Positions 26,650 to 36,332 of a stretch of 64,000 nucleotides of DNA are shown piece after piece. Where the stretch lies: NCBI GenBank assembly GCA_963555825.3, contig CAUVXB020000002.1, positions 1,472,001 to 1,536,000 on the forward strand. Reading direction: 5' to 3'. The notes beneath the pieces are model-generated. The model saw only the letters and a program-made list of their open reading frames with translations. It was not told where the DNA came from and searched no databases. The first letter of the stretch is position 1. Every line of letters begins with the position of its first letter. Both the position numbers and the translations under genes were made by a program. Source of the stretch: Alphaproteobacteria bacterium (GTDB taxonomy: Bacteria; Pseudomonadota; Alphaproteobacteria; JAAXGF01).

Positions 26650-27414
26650 TCAGTTAGCAGTCGGGGTTTGACGCCTGCGGCTCTGGTTGAGCCTGTAGCT
26701 GTCACCGTTCATCTCGAGGATGTTGACGTGGTGGGTGAGGCGATCGAGGAGCGCGCCGGTGAGGCGCTCGGAGCCGAACACCTCGGTCCATTCGTCGAAG
26801 GGCAGATTGGTGGTGACCAGGGTCGAGCCCCGCTCGTAGCGTTGGCTGAACACCTCGAACAACAGCTCGGCGCCGGTCTTCGACAGCGGCACGAAGCCGA
26901 GTTCGTCGACGATCAGAAGCTTGTAGGTGGCGAGCTTCTTCTGGAACCTCAGCAGCTGCTTGTCATCGCGGGCCTCGATGAGTTCGTGGACCAGCGCGGC
27001 GGCGGTGATGAAGCCGACCGAGAGGCCCTTCTGGCAGGCCGCCAGGCCGAGACCGAGGGCGATGTGGGTCTTGCCGGTCCCACTGTTGCCGAGCGCGATG
27101 AGGTTCTCGCGGCGCTCGATGTACTCGCAGCGGGCCAGCTCCAGGACCAGCGCCTTGTTGAGCGAGGGGATGACCTTGAAGTCGAAGCTGTCGAGGCTCT
27201 TGACCACGGGGAAGCGCGCCGCCTTGATGCGCCGCTCGACCATGCGGCGCTCGCGGTCGATCAGCTCGAGCTCGGCGAGTCTCAACAGGTAGCGGACGTG
27301 ATCGACGCCTTCCGAGGCGCACTGCCGGGCGATCTTGTCGTACTCGCGCAGGAAGGTCGGCAGCTTCAGCGTCTTGAGGTGGTGGGCGAGCAGCACTTGC
27401 GGTGTGTCGGTCAT
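26650..27414 (-). CDS. istB: IS21 helper ATPase IstB
   Basis: GNSGTGKT, LLIVDELG, LLDRLTHH. Confidence 0.93.
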   Translation of the reverse strand: MTDTPQVLLAHHLKTLKLPTFLREYDKIARQCASEGVDHVRYLLRLAELELIDRERRMVERRIKAARFPVVKSLDSFDFKVIPSLNKALVLELARCEYIERRENLIALGNSGTGKTHIALGLGLAACQKGLSVGFITAAALVHELIEARDDKQLLRFQKKLATYKLLIVDELGFVPLSKTGAELLFEVFSQRYERGSTLVTTNLPFDEWTEVFGSERLTGALLDRLTHHVNILEMNGDSYRLNQSRRRQTPTAN

Positions 27415-28063
27415 GCGCCGAGCCCCGACAGCAGGCTCATGTACGACTTGGCGGACGTCATCGCGACCCGGGCGCGCGGCAGATACGGATAGACGTCGAG
27501 GTTGAGCCTGGGCGGCCGCCGCTCGATGCGGCACAGTACCAGGTGCTTCACCGCATCAAAGCCGATTGCGCCGAGCCGCAGGGCGTCGCCGACCGCACCC
27601 TCGACCTCCTCGAGCCGGAAGGTCTCCAGTAGACGGAGCACCTGGACGTACTCGCGCTTGCCTGCCTTGCCCATACGAGCTTCGAGGAGCCGCCGCAGAG
27701 TGATGAAGGCCTCGGGCAGGTCCCAGCCCGCCAATGGCGCGGCCTGGTCGAGGGCGCCGATCTTCTGCTCGATCAAGGGCAGGTAATGCAGCGGGTCGAA
27801 GATCAGGTCCTCGCTGTCGTAGGACCGGCGGTGCCGGGCGATCACCTCGGCCCCGCAGCTGATCACCACCTCATCGACGTAGCCCCGGATGAGCACCTCA
27901 CGGTGGCCGTAGGCCACGGGCACGGAATAGTCGTTGCTGCGGTAACGCACCAGCGACAGCGAACTCGCCCGTCCAGGGCGCTTATCGCAGGCATCATAGG
28001 GAGCAGGCGGCAATGGCAAGAGAACTTGACGATCCCGCTCGAGACGCTCGCCGATGGTCTCCT

Positions 28064-29529
28064 TGTGAGGCCCCGCAAGCCGCGCCGCCTTCCATTGGCG
28101 CCAGGGCGGGTCGGCGTGTTTCGTGCGAGTGATCGCATCACCTTATATCCGGCAGCTCCGATCCGGCTTGATGCTGTATACATGGACCATCACAGGACGG
28201 GGATGGGACTAATCTTGTGGACGGCACCTTCGCCAAGGAGACATGCAGTCACACATCCAACCTGCCAACAAGCGTTCCCATCGGGGAATGAAGCCCGTTA
28301 GAACGCTGAGCTGATCCGCAGTCCTATTCGACGACAGCACCCACCGGGATCAGCCCGGTTTCCAGATACCGCCAAAGCGCGATCGCCAGTTTGCGGGCCA
28401 GGGCGACGATCATGACGCGCCTGATGCGCCCCTTCTGACCTTGGGTGCGGTCATGGAACCACTGGGTCAGAGCGCTATCGGGTTGATGGCGGACCCAAAG
28501 CCATGCGGCTTCGATCATGGCAACCCGTGCCAGCCGATTGCCCGCCTTGGAGATGCCTTGGCTGCGGCGCCCGTCGCCGCTGTCATAGGCACTGGGCGTG
28601 ATCCCGATATAGCTTGCCACCTGTCGGCGATTGGCGAACTGGCGATAATAGACTTCCCGTGCGAGCGTCGTGGATAAGGCCGGGCCGAGGCCCTTTAAGC
28701 GCAGCAGCTGGTGACGCTTGCTTTCCGTGGCCACACACGGTGTCGGCGCTTGATCACGCTCACGCTCGACCTCGACGATCTGCGCTTGGACCTGGGCCAG
28801 TCTCGCGATCTCCCGCGCGATCTCGCGGCCGAGACGGTCCGGCAGGGGTCGGCCGTCTCCGGTGACCAGCGCCGCCGGTGTCAAGGTCTTGTAGCGCGCC
28901 TTGACATTGATGCCGCGAATGCCCTGACCGAATAGCAGACCCTTGATCCGGTTGATGTGGGCGGTTCGCTCGCGGACCAATCGGTCACGTTCCCGATGAG
29001 AGCGGCGAAGGTCCTCCTCCGCGACGCTCGGAATCACCACCATGGAGCAGACATGACGCTCGCCGCGGCACCAGGCGATCAGCGTATGAAGAATATTCTC
29101 GACATCGATGCGGTCGGTCTTCACCCGCCGCGCCCGGCGGTTGACCCGCAAGCTGGCCGGCTCCATGACCAGACACTCGATGCCGCGCTGCTCGAGGAAC
29201 CGCGCCAACCAGAAGCCGTCGTAGCCGGCCTCGTAGCACAGCGTTATCGTCGGCGTTCGACCCGTCACCTTGACCACCCGGTCCCGCGCCGCGTCCAGCT
29301 TGGCCATCAGTCCTTCAGCGTCGCCGCCCTTGATCGGATGCAAGCTCGGATTGCCCCGCCCCGGAGCCTGGATCGCCAAAAGCCAGCTGTTCTTGCTCAA
29401 CTCCAGTGCCGCATAAATAGCGTGTTCATTGGAGGTCGATACCGGAAACTGTGCCATCGTGTCGCTCCTTCTGATCGAGGTTGAAATAATCGAAGGAGCT
29501 TGAGGCTGCGTCCTTCAGCCTCATAGCAT
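28064..29529 (-). mobile_element. IS110/IS1111-family element A, copy 1 (3' end garbled)
   Basis: Duplicated CT(T) core 28062 and 29530; matches 31419-32940. Confidence 0.9.
28324..29457 (-). CDS. IS110-family recombinase (E-E-D-D variant)
   Basis: ALELSK, CYEAG, KTDRID, PSAYDSG, GISKAGN, ALARKL. Confidence 0.92.
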   Translation of the reverse strand: MAQFPVSTSNEHAIYAALELSKNSWLLAIQAPGRGNPSLHPIKGGDAEGLMAKLDAARDRVVKVTGRTPTITLCYEAGYDGFWLARFLEQRGIECLVMEPASLRVNRRARRVKTDRIDVENILHTLIAWCRGERHVCSMVVIPSVAEEDLRRSHRERDRLVRERTAHINRIKGLLFGQGIRGINVKARYKTLTPAALVTGDGRPLPDRLGREIAREIARLAQVQAQIVEVERERDQAPTPCVATESKRHQLLRLKGLGPALSTTLAREVYYRQFANRRQVASYIGITPSAYDSGDGRRSQGISKAGNRLARVAMIEAAWLWVRHQPDSALTQWFHDRTQGQKGRIRRVMIVALARKLAIALWRYLETGLIPVGAVVE

Positions 29530-30496
29530 CTTGTGGCCCCGCAGCCGCGCCGCCTGGCGCCGGCGGCACTGTTCGGCGAGAGCATCGTTGAGGGCCGCGA
29601 AGCTCTCGGCACGCGGGACGGGGACCAGGAAGTTCCGCCGGATGAAGCCGACCAGTCCCTCGACCTTGCCCTTGTCGTTGCCCTTGCCCGGCCGGCCGAA
29701 CCTGTCCTCGAACAGATAGTGGGACTGAAGCTCCGTGAAGACGCGCGTTCGCTGCCGCTTCCCATCGCCCAGGATCCGGGCAACCGCCAGCTTGGTGTTG
29801 TCGTACAGGATGGATCGGGGGACGCCGCCGAAGAAGGCAAACGCCGCGTTGTGGCCATCGCAGAATGCTTCGGTCGTCTCCGCCGGATAGGCCGCAACAA
29901 AGCAACCATCACTGTGGGGAAGGTCGAAGGCAAGGAAGTGGATCTTCCGTAACGCGCCGCCGATCACCGCCATCGCTTCGCCGAAGTCCGCCTGGGCGTG
30001 ACCGGGGGAATGGGAGAGTGGCACGAACACCTCACGCGACCGAAGCCCCTGCTCACGAACGTAGTCCTTCACGATGGTGTAGCCGCCCGTGAAACCGTAC
30101 TCGTCCCGGAGGCGGTCGAAGATGCGCTTCGCAGTGTGCCGTTGCTTGCGGTGGCTGGTCCGATCGTCTTCCAAGATCCGATCGATGATTCCCGTGAACG
30201 GACCCAGCTTTGGCCGCCTCGGCGGCGCGCTTCGGCGATACCCTGGCGGCACCGAGAACGACAGCATCTTACGGACCGTCTTGCGGTCTACACCAAACAC
30301 CCGCGAGGCCTCGCGGGTGCTCATCCCCTCGACATGACACGCCCGCCGAACCCGTGCGTACAACTCCACCCGATACATCCCCCCCGCCTTCCAGTCAGAG
30401 CAACCCTGACAGAAGGCTATACGCGGTCCCATTTTGGTCCGCCGCAGCCGGATCGACCGGCCGCTTCAGTGGGGGATTATTGCTCTGCCGTTCTCA

Positions 30497-30733
30497 CCTA
30501 GCCGATTTCAACGGCGACTGGGCCGGGCGAGCATTGGAATTGGTGTCTGCTGGTTCAAGGCCGGCGCCGGCCAGCATATTGCGCGAATGCGTGAAATGTG
30601 CGGCGTTCTTGACGAGATCGGTTATCCAATCACTTGCTGCTGGACGGCGGAACCGGGCTGGCAGATTTATCAGGACGACTTTCAGATCGTCGCGCTCGAC
30701 CACAAGCGTCCGGCCAACGAATGCTGGATGTAG
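30497..30733 (+). pseudogene. C-terminal remnant of a hypothetical protein, truncated at the IS21 end
   Basis: Open frame PSRF..VCWFK..HIARM..PG..YQDDFQIVA with no start codon after the IS21 boundary. Confidence 0.55.
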
Positions 30734-30895
30734 TGGACGTTGGGTTCTGGTTGCTTTCGGCGGGGCGCACCCGACGCGCGGTGCCCTTCTCGTCGTGGAT
30801 CGGACGGTGTGCGGCGCGTTGACGCGCCTGTCCATGGTAAGCACACCGGGCTAACATGGAGCGGACAGTCGGCAGAGCAGGGGAGCGCGCCACTC

Positions 30896-31276
30896 ATGGG
30901 CGTCATCGGCATCGAGGAGATATTTCTCAAGGTCAAGGACATGGAGAAGGCGCTCGACTTCTACCACGGCATCGTCGGTCTGCCGATCGACAAGCAAGAC
31001 GGCGAACGCACCTATCTGCAGGCCGAGCGCGGCCACATCGTGCTGCAGATCGAGAACCACACCGGTCGCCACCAGGGCGGCGGCCCACTGCACTTCGCCT
31101 TCACCGTCAGCGAGGAGACCTTCGACGAGATTTTGGCGAAGTTCGCCGGCGGCACACACTTCACCCGCGGCCCCTACGGCGAGCGCGGCGCGGGCCGGGC
31201 GTTCTTTATGATCGACCCCGACGGCAACGAGGCGGAAGTCAACACCCGCTACTTATACGGCGCGCCGATGCGCTGA
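30896..31276 (+). CDS. VOC/glyoxalase family protein
   Basis: LKVKDMEKALDFY, LHFAFTV, IDPDGNEAE. Confidence 0.88.
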   Translation: MGVIGIEEIFLKVKDMEKALDFYHGIVGLPIDKQDGERTYLQAERGHIVLQIENHTGRHQGGGPLHFAFTVSEETFDEILAKFAGGTHFTRGPYGERGAGRAFFMIDPDGNEAEVNTRYLYGAPMR

Positions 31277-31519
31277 GGCGCCGACGATTAGATCGATGGC
31301 CACCGGCTTTGCACCGCGCCTGAGTGCGCCCTAGAAGCAATCGGCTGCCCAATCGGAAAGCGATGTCCGCTCACCGCTTGGAACCGGACGTCGGAGACGA
31401 GGTCGCTCGATGTCTCCTTATATGAGGCGTTTGCTGTCAAGGTGGATTTAATCTACGCCACATGATCGTCTCTTCCATTGGTTATGGCTTTGTATCCAGG
31501 GCGGGTCTTGCGATGAGTT

Positions 31520-31700
31520 CCGTGTTTCGTGCGAGTGATCGCATCACCTTATATCCGGCAGCTCCGATCCGGCTTGCCACAATGCTGTATACATGGACCA
31601 TCACAGGACGGGGATGGGACTAATCTTGTGGACGGCACCTTCGCCAAGGAGACATGCAGTCACACATCCAACCTGCCAACAAGCGTTCCCATCGGGGAAT
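31520..31700 (-). ncRNA. Predicted bridge/seek RNA of IS110-A (ends approximate)
   Basis: Target loop guides AUGUCUCCU / CCACAAG and donor loop guides ACAGCAUUG / AUAUAAG, each pair around an internal hairpin. Confidence 0.8.
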
Positions 31701-31734
31701 GAAGCCCGTTAGAACGCTGAGCTGATCCGCAGTC

Positions 31735-32868
31735 CTATTTGACGACAGCACCCACCGGGATCAGCCCGGTTTCCAGATACCGCCAAAGCGCGATCGCCAG
31801 TTTGCGGGCCAGGGCGACGATCATGACGCGCCTGATGCGCCCCTTCTGACCTTGGGTGCGGTCATGGAACCACTGGGTCAGAGCGCTATCGGGTTGATGG
31901 CGGACCCAAAGCCATGCGGCTTCGATCATGGCAACCCGTGCCAGCCGATTGCCCGCCTTGGAGATGCCTTGGCTGCGGCGCCCGTCGCCGCTGTCATAGG
32001 CACTGGGCGTGATCCCGATATAGCTTGCCACCTGTCGGCGATTGGCGAACTGGCGATAATAGACTTCCCGTGCGAGCGTCGTGGATAAGGCCGGGCCGAG
32101 GCCCTTTAAGCGCAGCAGCTGGTGACGCTTGCTTTCCGTGGCCACACACGGTGTCGGCGCTTGATCACGCTCACGCTCGACCTCGACGATCTGCGCTTGG
32201 ACCTGGGCCAGTCTCGCGATCTCCCGCGCGATCTCGCGGCCGAGACGGTCCGGCAGGGGTCGGCCGTCTCCGGTGACCAGCGCCGCCGGTGTCAAGGTCT
32301 TGTAGCGCGCCTTGACATTGATGCCGCGAATGCCCTGACCGAATAGCAGACCCTTGATCCGGTTGATGTGGGCGGTTCGCTCGCGGACCAATCGGTCACG
32401 TTCCCGATGAGAGCGGCGAAGGTCCTCCTCCGCGACGCTCGGAATCACCACCATGGAGCAGACATGACGCTCGCCGCGGCACCAGGCGATCAGCGTATGA
32501 AGAATATTCTCGACATCGATGCGGTCGGTCTTCACCCGCCGCGCCCGGCGGTTGACCCGCAAGCTGGCCGGCTCCATGACCAGACACTCGATGCCGCGCT
32601 GCTCGAGGAACCGCGCCAACCAGAAGCCGTCGTAGCCGGCCTCGTAGCACAGCGTTATCGTCGGCGTTCGACCCGTCACCTTGACCACCCGGTCCCGCGC
32701 CGCGTCCAGCTTGGCCATCAGTCCTTCAGCGTCGCCGCCCTTGATCGGATGCAAGCTCGGATTGCCCCGCCCCGGAGCCTGGATCGCCAAAAGCCAGCTG
32801 TTCTTGCTCAACTCCAGTGCCGCATAAATAGCGTGTTCATTGGAGGTCGATACCGGAAACTGTGCCAT
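31735..32868 (-). CDS. IS110-family recombinase (E-E-D-D variant)
   Basis: Identical to 28324-29457 except last residue. Confidence 0.92.
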   Translation of the reverse strand: MAQFPVSTSNEHAIYAALELSKNSWLLAIQAPGRGNPSLHPIKGGDAEGLMAKLDAARDRVVKVTGRTPTITLCYEAGYDGFWLARFLEQRGIECLVMEPASLRVNRRARRVKTDRIDVENILHTLIAWCRGERHVCSMVVIPSVAEEDLRRSHRERDRLVRERTAHINRIKGLLFGQGIRGINVKARYKTLTPAALVTGDGRPLPDRLGREIAREIARLAQVQAQIVEVERERDQAPTPCVATESKRHQLLRLKGLGPALSTTLAREVYYRQFANRRQVASYIGITPSAYDSGDGRRSQGISKAGNRLARVAMIEAAWLWVRHQPDSALTQWFHDRTQGQKGRIRRVMIVALARKLAIALWRYLETGLIPVGAVVK

Positions 32869-33027
32869 CGTGTCGCTCCTTCTGATCGAGGTTGAAATAA
32901 TCGAAGGAGCTTGAGGCTGCGTCCTTCAGCCTCATAGCATCTTGTGATGCTGTGGACGGCTCCACCGCCGGCATCGCAATGTGCCATGGAGGTTGTTTGA
33001 TAACCGCCAATAGGGGAGCCGCCCAAG

Positions 33028-34047
33028 ATGGAAGTTACCACGATCGGTGTTGATCTTGCGAAGAACGTTTTCCAGGTCCACGGAGTTGACGATGAGGGAA
33101 CCGTGGTCGTCCGCCGTCAGTTGAGGCGGCGTCAGGTGCTGGCCTTCTTCGAGAAACAGCCGCCCTGCCTGGTTGGTATGGAGGCATGTGCGACCGCGCA
33201 TTACTGGGCGCGGGAGATCGCGGCGCTTGGGCATGAGGTCAAGCTGATGCCGCCGCGCTATGTGAAGCCCTACGTGAAGCGGAACAAGAATGACGCTGCC
33301 GATGCGGAGGCTATTTGCGAGGCCGTCACGCGCCCGACGATGCGCTTTGTCGCGGTGAAGAGCGTCGAGCAGCAGAGCGTTCTGATGCTGCACCGAACGC
33401 GCGAGCTTCTGGTCCGCCAGAGAACCATGCTGGTCAACGCTACGCGGGCGCACATGGCGGAGTTCGGGGTGGTGGCGCGAACCGGGTTGCCGCAGGTCAA
33501 GGAGCTGCTCGCGGTGATCAGCGATGAGGCGGATGAGCGCATTCCGCCCCTGGCGCGGACTTGCCTGGAAGGGCTGGCGCGGCAGTTGCTGTCGCTGGAG
33601 CGGGAGATCGTCGGCGCTGAGAGGCGTATCCACGCCTGGCACCGGACGAACGAAGAGAGCCTGCGTCTCGAAACCACACCCGGCATCGGACCGATCACGG
33701 CGAGCGCGCTGGCATCTTCGATTGCCAATCCGTCGATCTTCAAATCGGGCCGCTCAATGGCCGCTTGGATCGGGCTGGTGCCAAGACAGAACTCGACCGG
33801 TGGCAAGGAGCGCATGGGGCGGATCTCCAAGCAGGGCGATCAATACCTGCGCTGGCTGCTGGTCGCCGGCGCCATGACGGTCATCCGCCACGCCAAGCGA
33901 CGCGGCACGACCGATCCATGGCTTGCCAACATCATCGCCGACAAGCCGACCAAGGTCGCGGCCGTGGCGCTGGCCAACAAGAACGCCCGCATTGCCTGGG
34001 CGCTTCTGAGACATGGCGGAACCTATCGCAGGCCCGCGACGGCCTAG
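33028..34047 (+). CDS. IS110/IS1111-family DEDD recombinase
   Basis: IGVDLAK, MEAC, KNDAADAEA, PRQNSTGGK, ISKQGD, ALANK. Confidence 0.94.
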   Translation: MEVTTIGVDLAKNVFQVHGVDDEGTVVVRRQLRRRQVLAFFEKQPPCLVGMEACATAHYWAREIAALGHEVKLMPPRYVKPYVKRNKNDAADAEAICEAVTRPTMRFVAVKSVEQQSVLMLHRTRELLVRQRTMLVNATRAHMAEFGVVARTGLPQVKELLAVISDEADERIPPLARTCLEGLARQLLSLEREIVGAERRIHAWHRTNEESLRLETTPGIGPITASALASSIANPSIFKSGRSMAAWIGLVPRQNSTGGKERMGRISKQGDQYLRWLLVAGAMTVIRHAKRRGTTDPWLANIIADKPTKVAAVALANKNARIAWALLRHGGTYRRPATA

Positions 34048-34089
34048 GCCGACGAAAACAAGGCGTTCACGAGTTTGGCGGAGTGTAAG

Positions 34090-34260
34090 TGACGTAATGC
34101 AAAATCGGTCGAACCGAGGATCGGGAAAACCCGCTATAGCCACGGCGCCTCGAGCGCGTGCTTATGACTGGGACCCGACCCCGCGGATCGCATTAGGGCC
34201 AGCGGCCATGTACGCCGCACCAAAAGGCCGGACACATGGCAGCACCCGACCAGCTTGCAT
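34090..34260 (+). ncRNA. Predicted seek/bridge RNA of IS1111-B (ends approximate)
   Basis: Candidate guides CUAUAGCCA/CUUAUG and AUCGCAUUA/ACACAUG; ACACAUG equals the donor junction. Confidence 0.65.
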
Positions 34261-34307
34261 CAACGTCACAAAATCTCTTGCCAACAGGGAGCCGTCCACA
34301 CATGACC

Positions 34308-34469
34308 CAGGCTGTGTAAAAACCGCCCCCGAGCGCTATTGGCACGATTTTCTCTAACTTCTCGAATTTCTAAACTCAACAAAATCAACATCTTATCAGA
34401 GGGCACTTTAGAAGAATTGACCGAGCACTCTCCTTTTAGTGGTATTTTCCGACGTTTTTACACAGCCTG
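34308..34469. mobile_element. IS1182-derived MITE (162 bp)
   Basis: TIR caggctgtgtaaaaac/gtttttacacagcctg near-identical to IS1182 ends; gacc/gacg flanks; AT-rich interior. Confidence 0.85.
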
Positions 34470-34488
34470 GACGCGGAGCGGTCATTGG

Positions 34489-34662
34489 CTAGGCGGCCGC
34501 CGCACTGCGCGAGATGCTCTTAACCTGGGCCGCGCAACGCGGGCACAGCCGGTGCCCGGGATGGTCGCTGAGAAACTTAGTGTTGCCCAGGCAGTTCGGT
34601 CCTAAGCAAGCGCGCATCTTGCGCTGCCTGAAATCCGGCTCGGGCTTGGCACTGGTCATCAT
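34489..34662 (-). CDS. Small 57-aa zinc-finger-like protein (absent from ORF track)
   Basis: MMTSAKPEPDFRQRKMRACLGPNCLGNTKFLSDHPGHRLCPRCAAQVKSISRSAAAA; C-x4-C..CxxC. Confidence 0.6.
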   Translation of the reverse strand: MMTSAKPEPDFRQRKMRACLGPNCLGNTKFLSDHPGHRLCPRCAAQVKSISRSAAAA

Positions 34663-34889
34663 CTAGCCTGGATTAATATGAGTGGACATGTCCCTGGGGT
34701 GTGTTCCCCACGCTTTCGGCAAACATAGCATAGATTGCGGGTGGGGTGGGGGGGCGGGCACACTGATTGTCCAGTTACCGCTCAAAAGCGGACGCCCAGC
34801 GTGTGAGCCGCCGATGTCTGGTTTTGATCCAGACTGTGTAAAAACGTCGATGGTGTTATGATTCTCTCGTGCTTTGGCGGGAGGGTCTG

Positions 34890-36332
34890 ATGAAGCGTTT
34901 TGTCGAGGGTGTCGATCGCAGCCAGGGCACGTTGTTTCCGGAGCGCCTGGAAGACTGGATCGGCGACGACAACCCGGTTCGGGCGATCGACGTCTTCGTC
35001 GATGAGCTCGATCTTGGCGGCCTCGGGTTCGACCGGGTCGAGCCGCTGGCGACCGGCAGGCCGGCCTATCATCCTTGCGATTTGTTGAAGCTCTACATCT
35101 ACGGCTATCTCAACCGGGTTCAGTCGAGCCGTCGGCTCGAGAGGGAGGCCGGGCGCAATGTGGAAGTGATGTGGCTGGTCGGCCGGCTGGCGCCGGATCA
35201 CAAGACGATCGCCGACTTCCGCAAGGACAACGGCCGTGCGATCCGCAAGGTCTGCGCCCGGTTCGTCGCGCTGTGCCGGCAACTCGGGCTGTTCGCCGAG
35301 GCGAGCGTGGTGATCGATGGCTCGAAGTTCAAGGCGGTCAACAGCCGGGACAGGAACTTCACGCGGGCCAAGATGGCGCGGCGGGTGGCGCAGATCGAGG
35401 AGAGCGTTGCGCGCTATCTGGACCAGTTGGACAGCGCCGACCGGCAAGAGCCGTCGCTGGCGCGCACGACCAAGACGACTCGTCTGGCCGACAAGATCGC
35501 GATCCTCAAGGAGGAGATGCGGCGCCTGAAGGCGCTTGAAGTCGAGCGGCGTGCGAGCCCGGACCAGCAGATCTCTCTGAGCGATCCCGATGCCCGCTCG
35601 ATGGCGACGAGCGGCCGGGGTTCCGGCGTGGTCGGCTACAACGTTCAGGCCGCCGTCGACACCAAGCACCACCTGATCGTCGCCCACGAGGTGACCAATC
35701 AGGGCACCGACCGCGCCCAGCTCTCAGCCATGGCGAAGCGGACCAAGGCGGCTCTGGAGACCGACGAGTTGGATGTCGTTGCCGATCGCGGCTACTACAA
35801 CGGCAAGGAGATTCTGGCCTGCGATGAGGCCGGCATCACCGTCACATTGCCTAAGCCGCTGACCTCTGGAGCCAAGGCCAAGGGCCGCTTCGGCAAACAG
35901 GACTTCGTCTATCTGGCCGCCGACGATGTCTATCGCTGCCCGGCCGGCGAGCGTTTGGTCTACCGCTTCACCAGCCAGGAGAGGGGGCTGAGCATGCGGC
36001 GCTACTGGACCAACGCCTGTCAGGGATGCGCCATCAAGCATCGCTGCACCACGGCCAAGCAGCGCCGCATCACCCGCTGGCAGCACGAGCATGTTCTCGA
36101 GGCCGTCGAGAGGCGGCTCGACGAGCACCCGGAGGCGATGCGTCGGCGGCGCGAGACGGCCGAGCATCCCTTCGGCACCATCAAGTCCTGGATGGGCGCG
36201 ACGCATTTCCAGACGAAGACGCTGAAACGGGTGAGGACCGAGATGGCCCTGCACGTGCTGGCCTACAATCTCAAGCGCGTCATGAACATCACGGGCATCG
36301 ACCCGCTGATCGCGGCGATGAGGACCGCATAG
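34890..36332 (+). CDS. IS1182-family transposase
   Basis: GRPAYHP, SSRRLE, PDHKTIADFR, IDGSK, ADRGY, EHPFGTIK. Confidence 0.93.
   Translation: MKRFVEGVDRSQGTLFPERLEDWIGDDNPVRAIDVFVDELDLGGLGFDRVEPLATGRPAYHPCDLLKLYIYGYLNRVQSSRRLEREAGRNVEVMWLVGRLAPDHKTIADFRKDNGRAIRKVCARFVALCRQLGLFAEASVVIDGSKFKAVNSRDRNFTRAKMARRVAQIEESVARYLDQLDSADRQEPSLARTTKTTRLADKIAILKEEMRRLKALEVERRASPDQQISLSDPDARSMATSGRGSGVVGYNVQAAVDTKHHLIVAHEVTNQGTDRAQLSAMAKRTKAALETDELDVVADRGYYNGKEILACDEAGITVTLPKPLTSGAKAKGRFGKQDFVYLAADDVYRCPAGERLVYRFTSQERGLSMRRYWTNACQGCAIKHRCTTAKQRRITRWQHEHVLEAVERRLDEHPEAMRRRRETAEHPFGTIKSWMGATHFQTKTLKRVRTEMALHVLAYNLKRVMNITGIDPLIAAMRTA

Follow-up and report, generated by a model that had tools for sequence, protein, structure and literature searches.

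An IS110-family insertion sequence and its gene

We analysed 64,000 nucleotides (nt) of the genome of an alphaproteobacterium (contig CAUVXB020000002.1, positions 1,472,001 to 1,536,000; this whole stretch is called the window, and coordinates without further label refer to it) with regard to an insertion sequence (IS) at positions 31419-32942, here called copy 2. The genome containing the window amounts to 6.04 Mb in two contigs. Copy 2 measures 1,524 base pairs (bp) if one CT core is counted, with borders at the CT cores where the blastn identity stops, and both its gene, encoding a recombinase/transposase of 377 amino acids (aa), and its predicted RNA lie on the minus strand. On the evidence presented below, copy 2 is very probably a recently active IS110-family insertion sequence with the layout of the IS1111 group, whose 3' RNA carries two target guides and two donor guides.

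The gene (31735-32868) has 72 nt upstream of its ATG (32869-32940; 74 nt with the core) and is followed by 316 nt of non-coding DNA (31419-31734). Close to the ends of the element, an 8-bp subterminal inverted repeat reads TATGAGGC at 31421-31428 and, as its complement, GCCTCATA at 32929-32936 (both given for the plus strand). On the left side, the plus strand carries the left target half ATGTCTC (31410-31416) and the core CT, together 31410-31418; on the right side, the core CT and the right target half TGTGA occupy 32941-32947 and are at the same time the first bases of a neighbouring element, IS-B. The joined ends of copy 2 read ATAGCAT-CT-TATATGAGG. A preliminary description of this DNA, made from the sequence alone, had given the target as ATGTCTC-CT-TGTGA and the donor as ATAGCAT-CT-TATAT, and the flanks and joined ends indeed read in this way.

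The 377-aa protein was recognised by the Pfam profiles PF01548 (DEDD_Tnp_IS110; 38.7 bits, cut-off 29) and PF02371 (Transposase_20; 60.9 bits, cut-off 21.3) and, over residues 15-368, by the NCBIfam profile NF033542 with 204.4 bits compared to a cut-off of 140. As NCBIfam already names such a protein 'IS110 family RNA-guided transposase', its earlier presentation as a candidate new recombinase cannot be maintained. The catalytic residues are E19, E76, D115, D118 and S293.

Copies of the element and their insertion sites

Eleven full-length copies of the element were found in the genome by blastn at 99.87-100% identity, along with two left-truncated copies and some fragments. Because all 11 full copies keep the 377-aa open reading frame (ORF) intact and differ internally by only 0-2 bases, we consider the element to have been active recently. 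The full copies occupy five distinct sites, all of which fit the 14-nt consensus nnGTCTC-CT-T(G/A)TG(G/A), with nnGTCTC-CT on the left of every copy. Seven full copies and both truncated ones are located at TGGTCTC-CT-TGTGG, a site within istA, and the remaining four full copies at ATGTCTC-CT-TGTGA (twice, with different outer flanks), TCGTCTC-CT-TGTGG and ATGTCTC-CT-TATGG. The orientation relative to the site is identical in all 11 cases, the CT core is shared and there is no further duplication of the target, so that insertion is specific for both site and orientation. The inspection of the flanks of all genomic copies, which the preliminary description had proposed as a check, thus gave agreement in 11 of 11 full copies and at five independent sites.

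In order to place the istA site in its context, the 11-nt target word GTCTCCTTGTG was counted, which occurs 77 times in the genome compared to 2.3 expected occurrences. An intact copy of the repeated context encodes the IS21-family proteins IstA (NF033546, 285 bits; 517 aa) and IstB (NF038214, 278 bits; 254 aa), and 64 full-length istA copies were detected by blastn at 92-100% identity. The site inside istA is the main natural target in this genome, and insertion splits the IS21 transposase gene at about 9 of 82 sites. In one literature search that combined IS110, istA, IS21 and target site, no publication emerged in which istA is the target of an IS110-family element.

Two further sites with the sequence GTCTC-CT-TGTG, at G000:C1:300176 and C1:1642219, are unique and unoccupied. 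In these, TGTG is followed by C and GTCTC is preceded by GC or CC, and they could be of use as naturally occurring negative examples when mismatch tolerance is studied. In the RNA-library contigs X1, X3 and X4, the left flank of copy 2 (31300-31419) runs straight into GTGACCCGGAGCGG, which corresponds to an empty site and relates to position 32947, and in the same contigs the right end of the element is joined to the GTGACCCGGAGCGG sequence. From these empty and filled joints it follows that, in that population, a site lacking IS-B occurs both with the element and empty.

The window itself contains an IS21-family element in two parts (26650-28063 and 29532-30432), and within its istA lies a second, decayed copy of the element, copy 1 (28115-29531, minus strand). 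Here, the first approximately 102 nt of the left end are replaced by approximately 50 nt resembling the right flank of istA, and the donor loop has lost 5 nt (the equivalent of 31577-31581). The ORF is intact except for the last residue, which is changed from K to E, and outside its left end copy 1 agrees with the other copies at 99.6% identity. The claim that copy 1 had inserted at TGGTCTC-CT-TGTGG in istA is therefore borne out with regard to the target, where seven intact copies lie elsewhere in the genome, and not with regard to a clean second insertion, since copy 1 is decayed. The roughly 50 nt at 28064-28114 resemble the istA sequence on the right side of the target, as a duplicate would that had since diverged, and contain three small insertions; as one idea, this left end may have arisen by an aberrant excision that took flanking DNA along. 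A solo left-end fragment at G000:C1:1251402-1251639 (locus L015) lies at the same istA site and is 89% identical; its similarity ends within the DNA for the 5' target guide, at the equivalent of 31649, where this DNA mimics the left target half plus core.

Four guide segments in the downstream non-coding region

Four guide-like words had been pointed out on the minus strand of the non-coding region, and all of them are present. The 5' target guide AUGUCUC with the core CU (AUGUCUCCU; 31655-31647) is identical to the left target half plus core, and the 3' target guide CCACA with the core AG (31631-31625) is the reverse complement of CT-TGTGG. The 5' donor guide ACAGCAU-UG (ACAGCAUUG; 31588-31580) contains AGCAU, which pairs with ATGCT at the element end, and the 3' donor guide AUAUA with the core AG (31554-31548) is identical to the other end of the element, ATATA-AG. 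As the reverse complement of the right target, CCACAAG is exact for the istA site and reaches 6 of 7 positions for the site of copy 2 itself (TCACAAG), so that this part of the preliminary description applies fully to the former only. The istA site fits the two target guides at 5/7 and 5/5 positions, and the ATGTCTC...TGTGA sites at 7/7 and 4/5.

For comparison, the 316-nt non-coding region was shuffled 200,000 times. The target 9-mer appeared in 168 of the shuffled sequences and CCACAAG in 4,895, the two together in 5, and ATATAAG in 3,074.

A two-loop RNA core conserved among relatives

A search with one genome per species yielded 405 relatives, and the analysis was continued with the best 80 loci, at amino-acid identities of 49-89%. 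In the alignment of the regions downstream of the stop codon, the scaffold is conserved and the variable blocks coincide with both target guides. The predicted bridge RNA/seekRNA core with its two loops corresponds to 31517-31669 (minus strand) and measures approximately 155 nt; when 81 sequences were searched with a nhmmer profile, 45 of them proved to contain it. RNAalifold, run on 19 distinct cores, predicted stem A, the hairpin of the donor loop and the 3' hairpin, and we added the hairpin between the target guides and the long-range stem B, which resulted in a five-helix structure. A trimmed version of the alignment, in which the 3' arm of stem B was cut off in some rows, was left out of the results.

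In this structure, the target loop is closed by stem A (helix 1), whose 5' arm GGAUGUGUGACU (31658-31669) was predicted by RNAalifold and whose 3' arm AGUCCCAUCC (31612-31621) is supported by RNAalifold and the pairing test; it is paired in 100% of cells, with three pairs changed on both sides. The hairpin inside the target loop (UGGCGAAGGUGCCGU; 31632-31646; helix 2) retains three GGC/GCC pairs in 16-19 of 19 sequences and shows one compensatory change. The donor loop is closed by stem B (helix 3), in which the 5' arm GGUCCAUG (31592-31599) pairs with the 3' arm CACGGAAC (31517-31524; pairing test), with 73.3% of cells paired and five of eight pairs changed on both sides. Inside this loop, one hairpin at 31557-31579 (helix 4) is paired in 98.7% of cells and has four pairs changed on both sides, and another, at 31529-31546 between the 3' donor guide and stem B (helix 5), is paired in 96.1% with one such pair. 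All these features lie on the minus strand. Over the entire five-helix structure, 90.3% of cells pair, compared to 35-40% with slid partners, and changes on both sides were found at 14 pairs, a number that none of 500 shuffles reached. The target-loop/donor-loop layout, first recognised from a single sequence, is supported by compensatory changes, and also by the covariation of both target guides and the 5' donor guide described in the following section.

Guides change together with targets and ends

The guides of about 20 relatives were extracted in an anchored manner, i.e. the conserved ends served to locate the flanks and the stem arms to delimit the loop. This extraction replaced a MAFFT-based table, in which the 5' target guide was misplaced in the L031-L035 group due to a longer inner hairpin. 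The right ends picked at first for L031 and L038 were false matches and were rejected. The 5' target guide matches the flank of its own element at a mean of 6.4 of 7 positions, with 9 of 16 perfect, compared to a mean of 4.15 and 3.5% perfect for the flanks of other elements. The 3' target guide was scored in a fixed register (an earlier, wrong register had given a mean of 4.78/7 for own flanks) and matches its own flank at 4.17 of 5 positions, perfectly in 8 of 18 cases and at four or more positions in 14 of 18, compared to 1.70 of 5, 0.9% perfect and 6.6% at four or more for the flanks of other elements. At least ten different addresses occur among the relatives, e.g. ATGTCCG/CCAAA, ACGTCCG/GGTAA, CGAAACC/TGTGA, AAACCGC/CCGCG, ACGGCGG/CCCGG and CGAAAAC/GGTTT. 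The 7-nt match is followed by a CTT, and in several groups of relatives the 5' target guide has A in place of its middle letter.

With regard to the donor loop, the 5' donor guide pairs with the element end at the single variable position (position 3) in 26 of 29 distinct rows, namely 13 times as C:G, 12 times as G:C and once as G:T: the end ATGCT goes along with the guide AGCAU (13 rows) and the end ATCCT with a G at that place in the guide (12 rows). None of the relatives examined departs from the ATATAAG of the 3' donor guide and its end, so that the match is consistent and covariation gives no information. Comparison across relatives thus supports three of the four guides by a natural 'reprogramming'. 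In L040, L045, L039, L046, L052, L049, L042 and L062, the element end reads TATAAA instead of TATAAG, and the core in these relatives may be TT rather than CT.

A promoter expected at the joined ends

If the ends of copy 2 are joined, the hexamer TTGACA (31440-31435, minus strand), a spacer of 17 nt and GATGCT (32941-32936) come to lie in an arrangement that arises only in this way. This junction, too, had been noted in the preliminary description and is readily read in the sequence. The -35 hexamer, TTGAC(A/T), keeps the same distance from the end in all 28 distinct relatives, and the spacer to the -10-like hexamer is 17 nt in 27 of them and 18 nt in L035. The sequence between the -35 hexamer and the end varies, and the terminal (C)TCATATAA(G/A) is constant. 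Judged from sequence conservation, the -35 hexamer at the end fits the proposal of Siddiquee 2024 (PMC11187229) that the mRNA and a long RNA would be transcribed together from a junction promoter and then processed.

In three of four RNA-library runs, the contig depth was higher over the non-coding region than over the gene; we did not count this as evidence, as contigs cannot show transcription. No circle joint was seen in the RNA-library contigs examined, in which uncovered stretches mean nothing.

Relationship to known IS110 and IS1111 elements

All features of the IS1111-group layout were found in copy 2, namely the 8-bp subterminal repeat, a short upstream and a long, RNA-coding downstream end, and a match to the top strand of the target that lies 5' of the match to the bottom strand. 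When the element is oriented so that the gene runs rightwards, the top strand is the one that AUGUCUCCU complements, and CCACAAG, located 3' of AUGUCUCCU, complements the bottom strand. For IS1111 elements, subterminal repeats of 7-17 bp and long right ends are described by Durrant 2024 (PMC11208160), with a bridge RNA predicted in the right end of 93% of them, and Siddiquee 2024 (PMC11187229) gives a downstream non-coding region and target matches ordered top strand before bottom strand for this group. The 8-bp subterminal repeat and the 3' RNA, which had been regarded as unusual, are therefore stated hallmarks of the IS1111 group. Elements of this kind have been known since 2024, and copy 2 is a new instance and not a new kind; it leaves the knowledge of the mechanism unchanged.

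The closest parallels are ISEc11, ISPa11, ISKpn4 and ISPst6, seekRNA elements of the IS1111 group (PMC11187229). Like these, copy 2 has its RNA region downstream of the gene, subterminal repeats and two short RNA segments matching opposite strands of the target, with the top-strand one located 5', and each element or group has its own target. The long RNA form of the four elements is 145-170 nt according to the same source, compared to approximately 155 nt for the core predicted here, and IS1111-type seekRNAs are reported there to be essential, to co-purify with the transposase and to be reprogrammable. Copy 2 differs from these elements in its protein of 377 aa instead of about 340, in the E at the first catalytic position and in its target nnGTCTC-CT-TGTGr, and it is known here from sequence alone. 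With IS621 (PMC11208160, PMC11208158), copy 2 shares the target and donor loops, in each of which the 5' guide exceeds the 3' guide in length and the guides include the CT core, as well as a RuvC-like domain plus a C-terminal one that carries a conserved serine. In contrast to IS621, in which the RNA is described as lying in the left end upstream of the gene, the RNA of copy 2 is located in the right end and the order of the guides relative to the gene is reversed; likewise, its subterminal repeats of 8 bp differ from the 2-3 bp given for the IS110 group.

The catalytic columns were examined in an alignment of 106 sequences, in which 104 full-length representatives were combined with the query and the protein of IS-B. 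The first catalytic residue is E in 90 sequences, D in 15 and H in one; E76 and D115 are each conserved in 105 of 106 and D118 in all, and the column of S293 contains S in 97 and T in 8. Since E occupies the first position in 90 of 106 sequences, E-E-D-D is the norm of this clade rather than the unusual catalytic set for which it had been taken. The clade comprises at least 888 clusters at 50% identity (representative search, E up to 1e-30). In plasmid annotation, relatives of more than 45% identity are labelled only 'IS110 family transposase', with no ISfinder name.

The protein may belong to the IS1111 group proper or to a sister lineage. It is possible, although we regard it as rather doubtful, that the same mechanism operates in a separate deep lineage of the IS110 family, which shares an IS1111-like layout or reached it independently and is not a true member of the IS1111 group. 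In line with this, 377 aa exceed the 330-350 aa of IS1111-family transposases and fall within the 345-385 aa of one IS110 cluster, and IS110-type groups with a downstream non-coding region exist (PMC11187229). In addition, the protein is only approximately 24% identical to IS4321/IS5075-family proteins (residues 58-362) and 26% to that of the IS1111-like IS-B, its S293-G294 pair stands in the motif GITPSAYDSG, i.e. GI-P----SG and not the GL-P----S(t)G of the IS1111 group, and E replaces D at the first catalytic position in most of the clade. The layout argues in the opposite direction, as every IS1111 feature is present, including a repeat within 7-17 bp, a long RNA-bearing right end and the top-strand match in the 5' position. 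Furthermore, IS621 and ISCro4 of the IS110 group align with the protein only in the C-terminal domain (E = 7e-8 for IS621 chain 8wt6), and the N-terminal domains of the protein and IS621 are too diverged for alignment by phmmer.

Neighbouring elements

Copy 2 abuts IS-B, a second IS110-family element at about 32943-34305, whose transposase (33028-34047, plus strand) is a DEDD protein of 339 aa. IS-B has inverted repeats of approximately 13 bp (GTGGACGGCTCC) near its ends, a longer non-coding end downstream and five other copies of approximately 97% identity; its left flanks resemble aATGTC(C/T)G-CT, which is near the left target half of copy 2. Copy 2, the copy at C2:3497088-3498625 and IS-B all reside in variants of one repeat family, copy 2 and IS-B only a few bases apart in one member. 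This family (...cggaagcggac-N-GTCTGCTGCTGA to the left of a dividing bar and CCCAGnCTGTGTAAAAAC... to its right) gives 42 hits in the genome and is represented in the window at 31363-31418 and 34306-34470. The part to the right of the bar (CCCAGnCTGTGTAAAAAC) has three different continuations, as would be expected if several other elements had this end in common. An IS1182-family transposase follows at 34869-36332.

Discussion

Based on these results, we propose the following mode of action for copy 2. The element would excise as a circle, whose joined ends set TTGACA 17 nt from GATGCT, and this junction promoter would drive a single transcript comprising the recombinase mRNA and the 3' RNA. 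The core of the RNA, approximately 155 nt in length, would fold into two stem-closed loops and be bound by the recombinase. In the first loop, AUGUCUC-CU and CCACA-AG would pair with opposite strands of the target nnGTCTC-CT-TGTGr, and in the second one, ACAGCAU-UG and AUAUA-AG with both ends across the circle junction ATAGCAT-CT-TATAT. The recombinase, with E19, E76, D115 and D118 and, in the C-terminal domain, S293 as presumed catalytic residues, would then exchange strands at the CT core, resulting in an orientation-specific insertion and, as expected from such an exchange, in no duplication of the target beyond the core.

A number of observations weigh against this interpretation. With regard to expression, the junction -10 hexamer of the GATGCT type fits at only 3 of 6 positions, and a scan of the integrated copy found no promoter-like or terminator-like site, so that no separate promoter can be proposed for the RNA. 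The element is contained in RNA-library contigs of four runs, all from one study, and these contigs are uninformative on transcription, RNA ends and strand, and DNA may be present. With regard to the fold, the whole 331-nt region folded alone was no better than shuffles (z = -0.02), and this uninformative single-sequence fold was therefore replaced by the comparative one, in which stem B is the weakest helix and the fourth pair of the inner target hairpin is unsupported. An Rfam scan of the region 27500-34500 gave no match at E up to 1. The guides are also imperfect in places: the 5' donor guide of copy 2 carries a mismatch and a non-matching core (UG compared to CT), and none of the sites in the genome matches both target guides perfectly. 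Among the relatives, the 3' target guide reaches only 2-3 of 5 positions in L068 and L069 and 3 of 5 in L033 and L038, the 5' target guide is poor in L034 (4/7), and the covariation of the 5' donor guide is broken in L034, L043 and L046. Finally, 73 of the 77 occurrences of GTCTCCTTGTG are unoccupied sites in one repeated (istA) context, and the seven istA copies may not be independent, as an IS21 copy carrying the insert could have moved in trans.

If the choice of target lay with the protein or with DNA-DNA pairing, the role of the non-coding region would be that of DNA alone, for example as a binding site or as a relic copy of the target, and no guide RNA would be involved. The RNA contigs and the promoter scan, which do not establish that an RNA is made, would agree with this, as would the guide-coding DNA in that it mimics the left target half. 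We nevertheless consider such a mode very unlikely, since the split guides sit in loops of a fold that is kept by compensatory changes, which indicates selection on RNA pairing, and since, from relative to relative, a change in flanks or ends is accompanied by a change in both target guides and one donor guide; in addition, the relatives tested elsewhere require RNA (PMC11187229). That the matches are a coincidence or a by-product of repeats around insertion sequences is hardly credible, even though the words are short (5-9 nt), the genome is rich in repeats and copy 2 is itself flanked by repeated elements, as both target words came together in so few shuffles, the 14-nt consensus recurs at five sites whose outer flanks are unrelated, and in relatives with other targets the matching words occupy the same places in the structure. 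The covariation tables already contradict it.

A natural target inside another mobile element is not without precedent: Partridge and Hall reportedly described in 2003 that IS4321 and IS5075, of the IS1111 family, insert into the terminal repeats of Tn21-family transposons. Unlike in that case, the main target of the element studied here is the coding sequence of istA, so that insertion splits the gene.

Copy 2 represents a clean natural RNA-guided insertion sequence, in which target, donor, core and four guides are readable and were checked against five sites in the genome and about 20 relatives with other addresses. It provides a design rule for one more recombinase lineage, since it indicates the RNA positions to be changed for a new target, and could be tried as a programmable tool for DNA insertion. 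We suggest, tentatively and with the odds rather against it, that the clade could form a third, experimentally untouched lineage of bridge recombinases, characterised by proteins of approximately 377 aa, E-E-D-D and an RNA scaffold of its own, with guides of 7+2 and 5+2 nt in each of the two loops and with a long-range stem that encloses two hairpins and closes the donor loop, and comprising the clusters counted above, mostly from Alphaproteobacteria as judged from 80 record titles. As part of the same tentative suggestion, the element may be a natural RNA-programmed disruptor of the IS21 bloom, present at no fewer than 9 of about 82 istA sites. In this genome, one mobile element specifically disrupts the transposase gene of another that has bloomed there.

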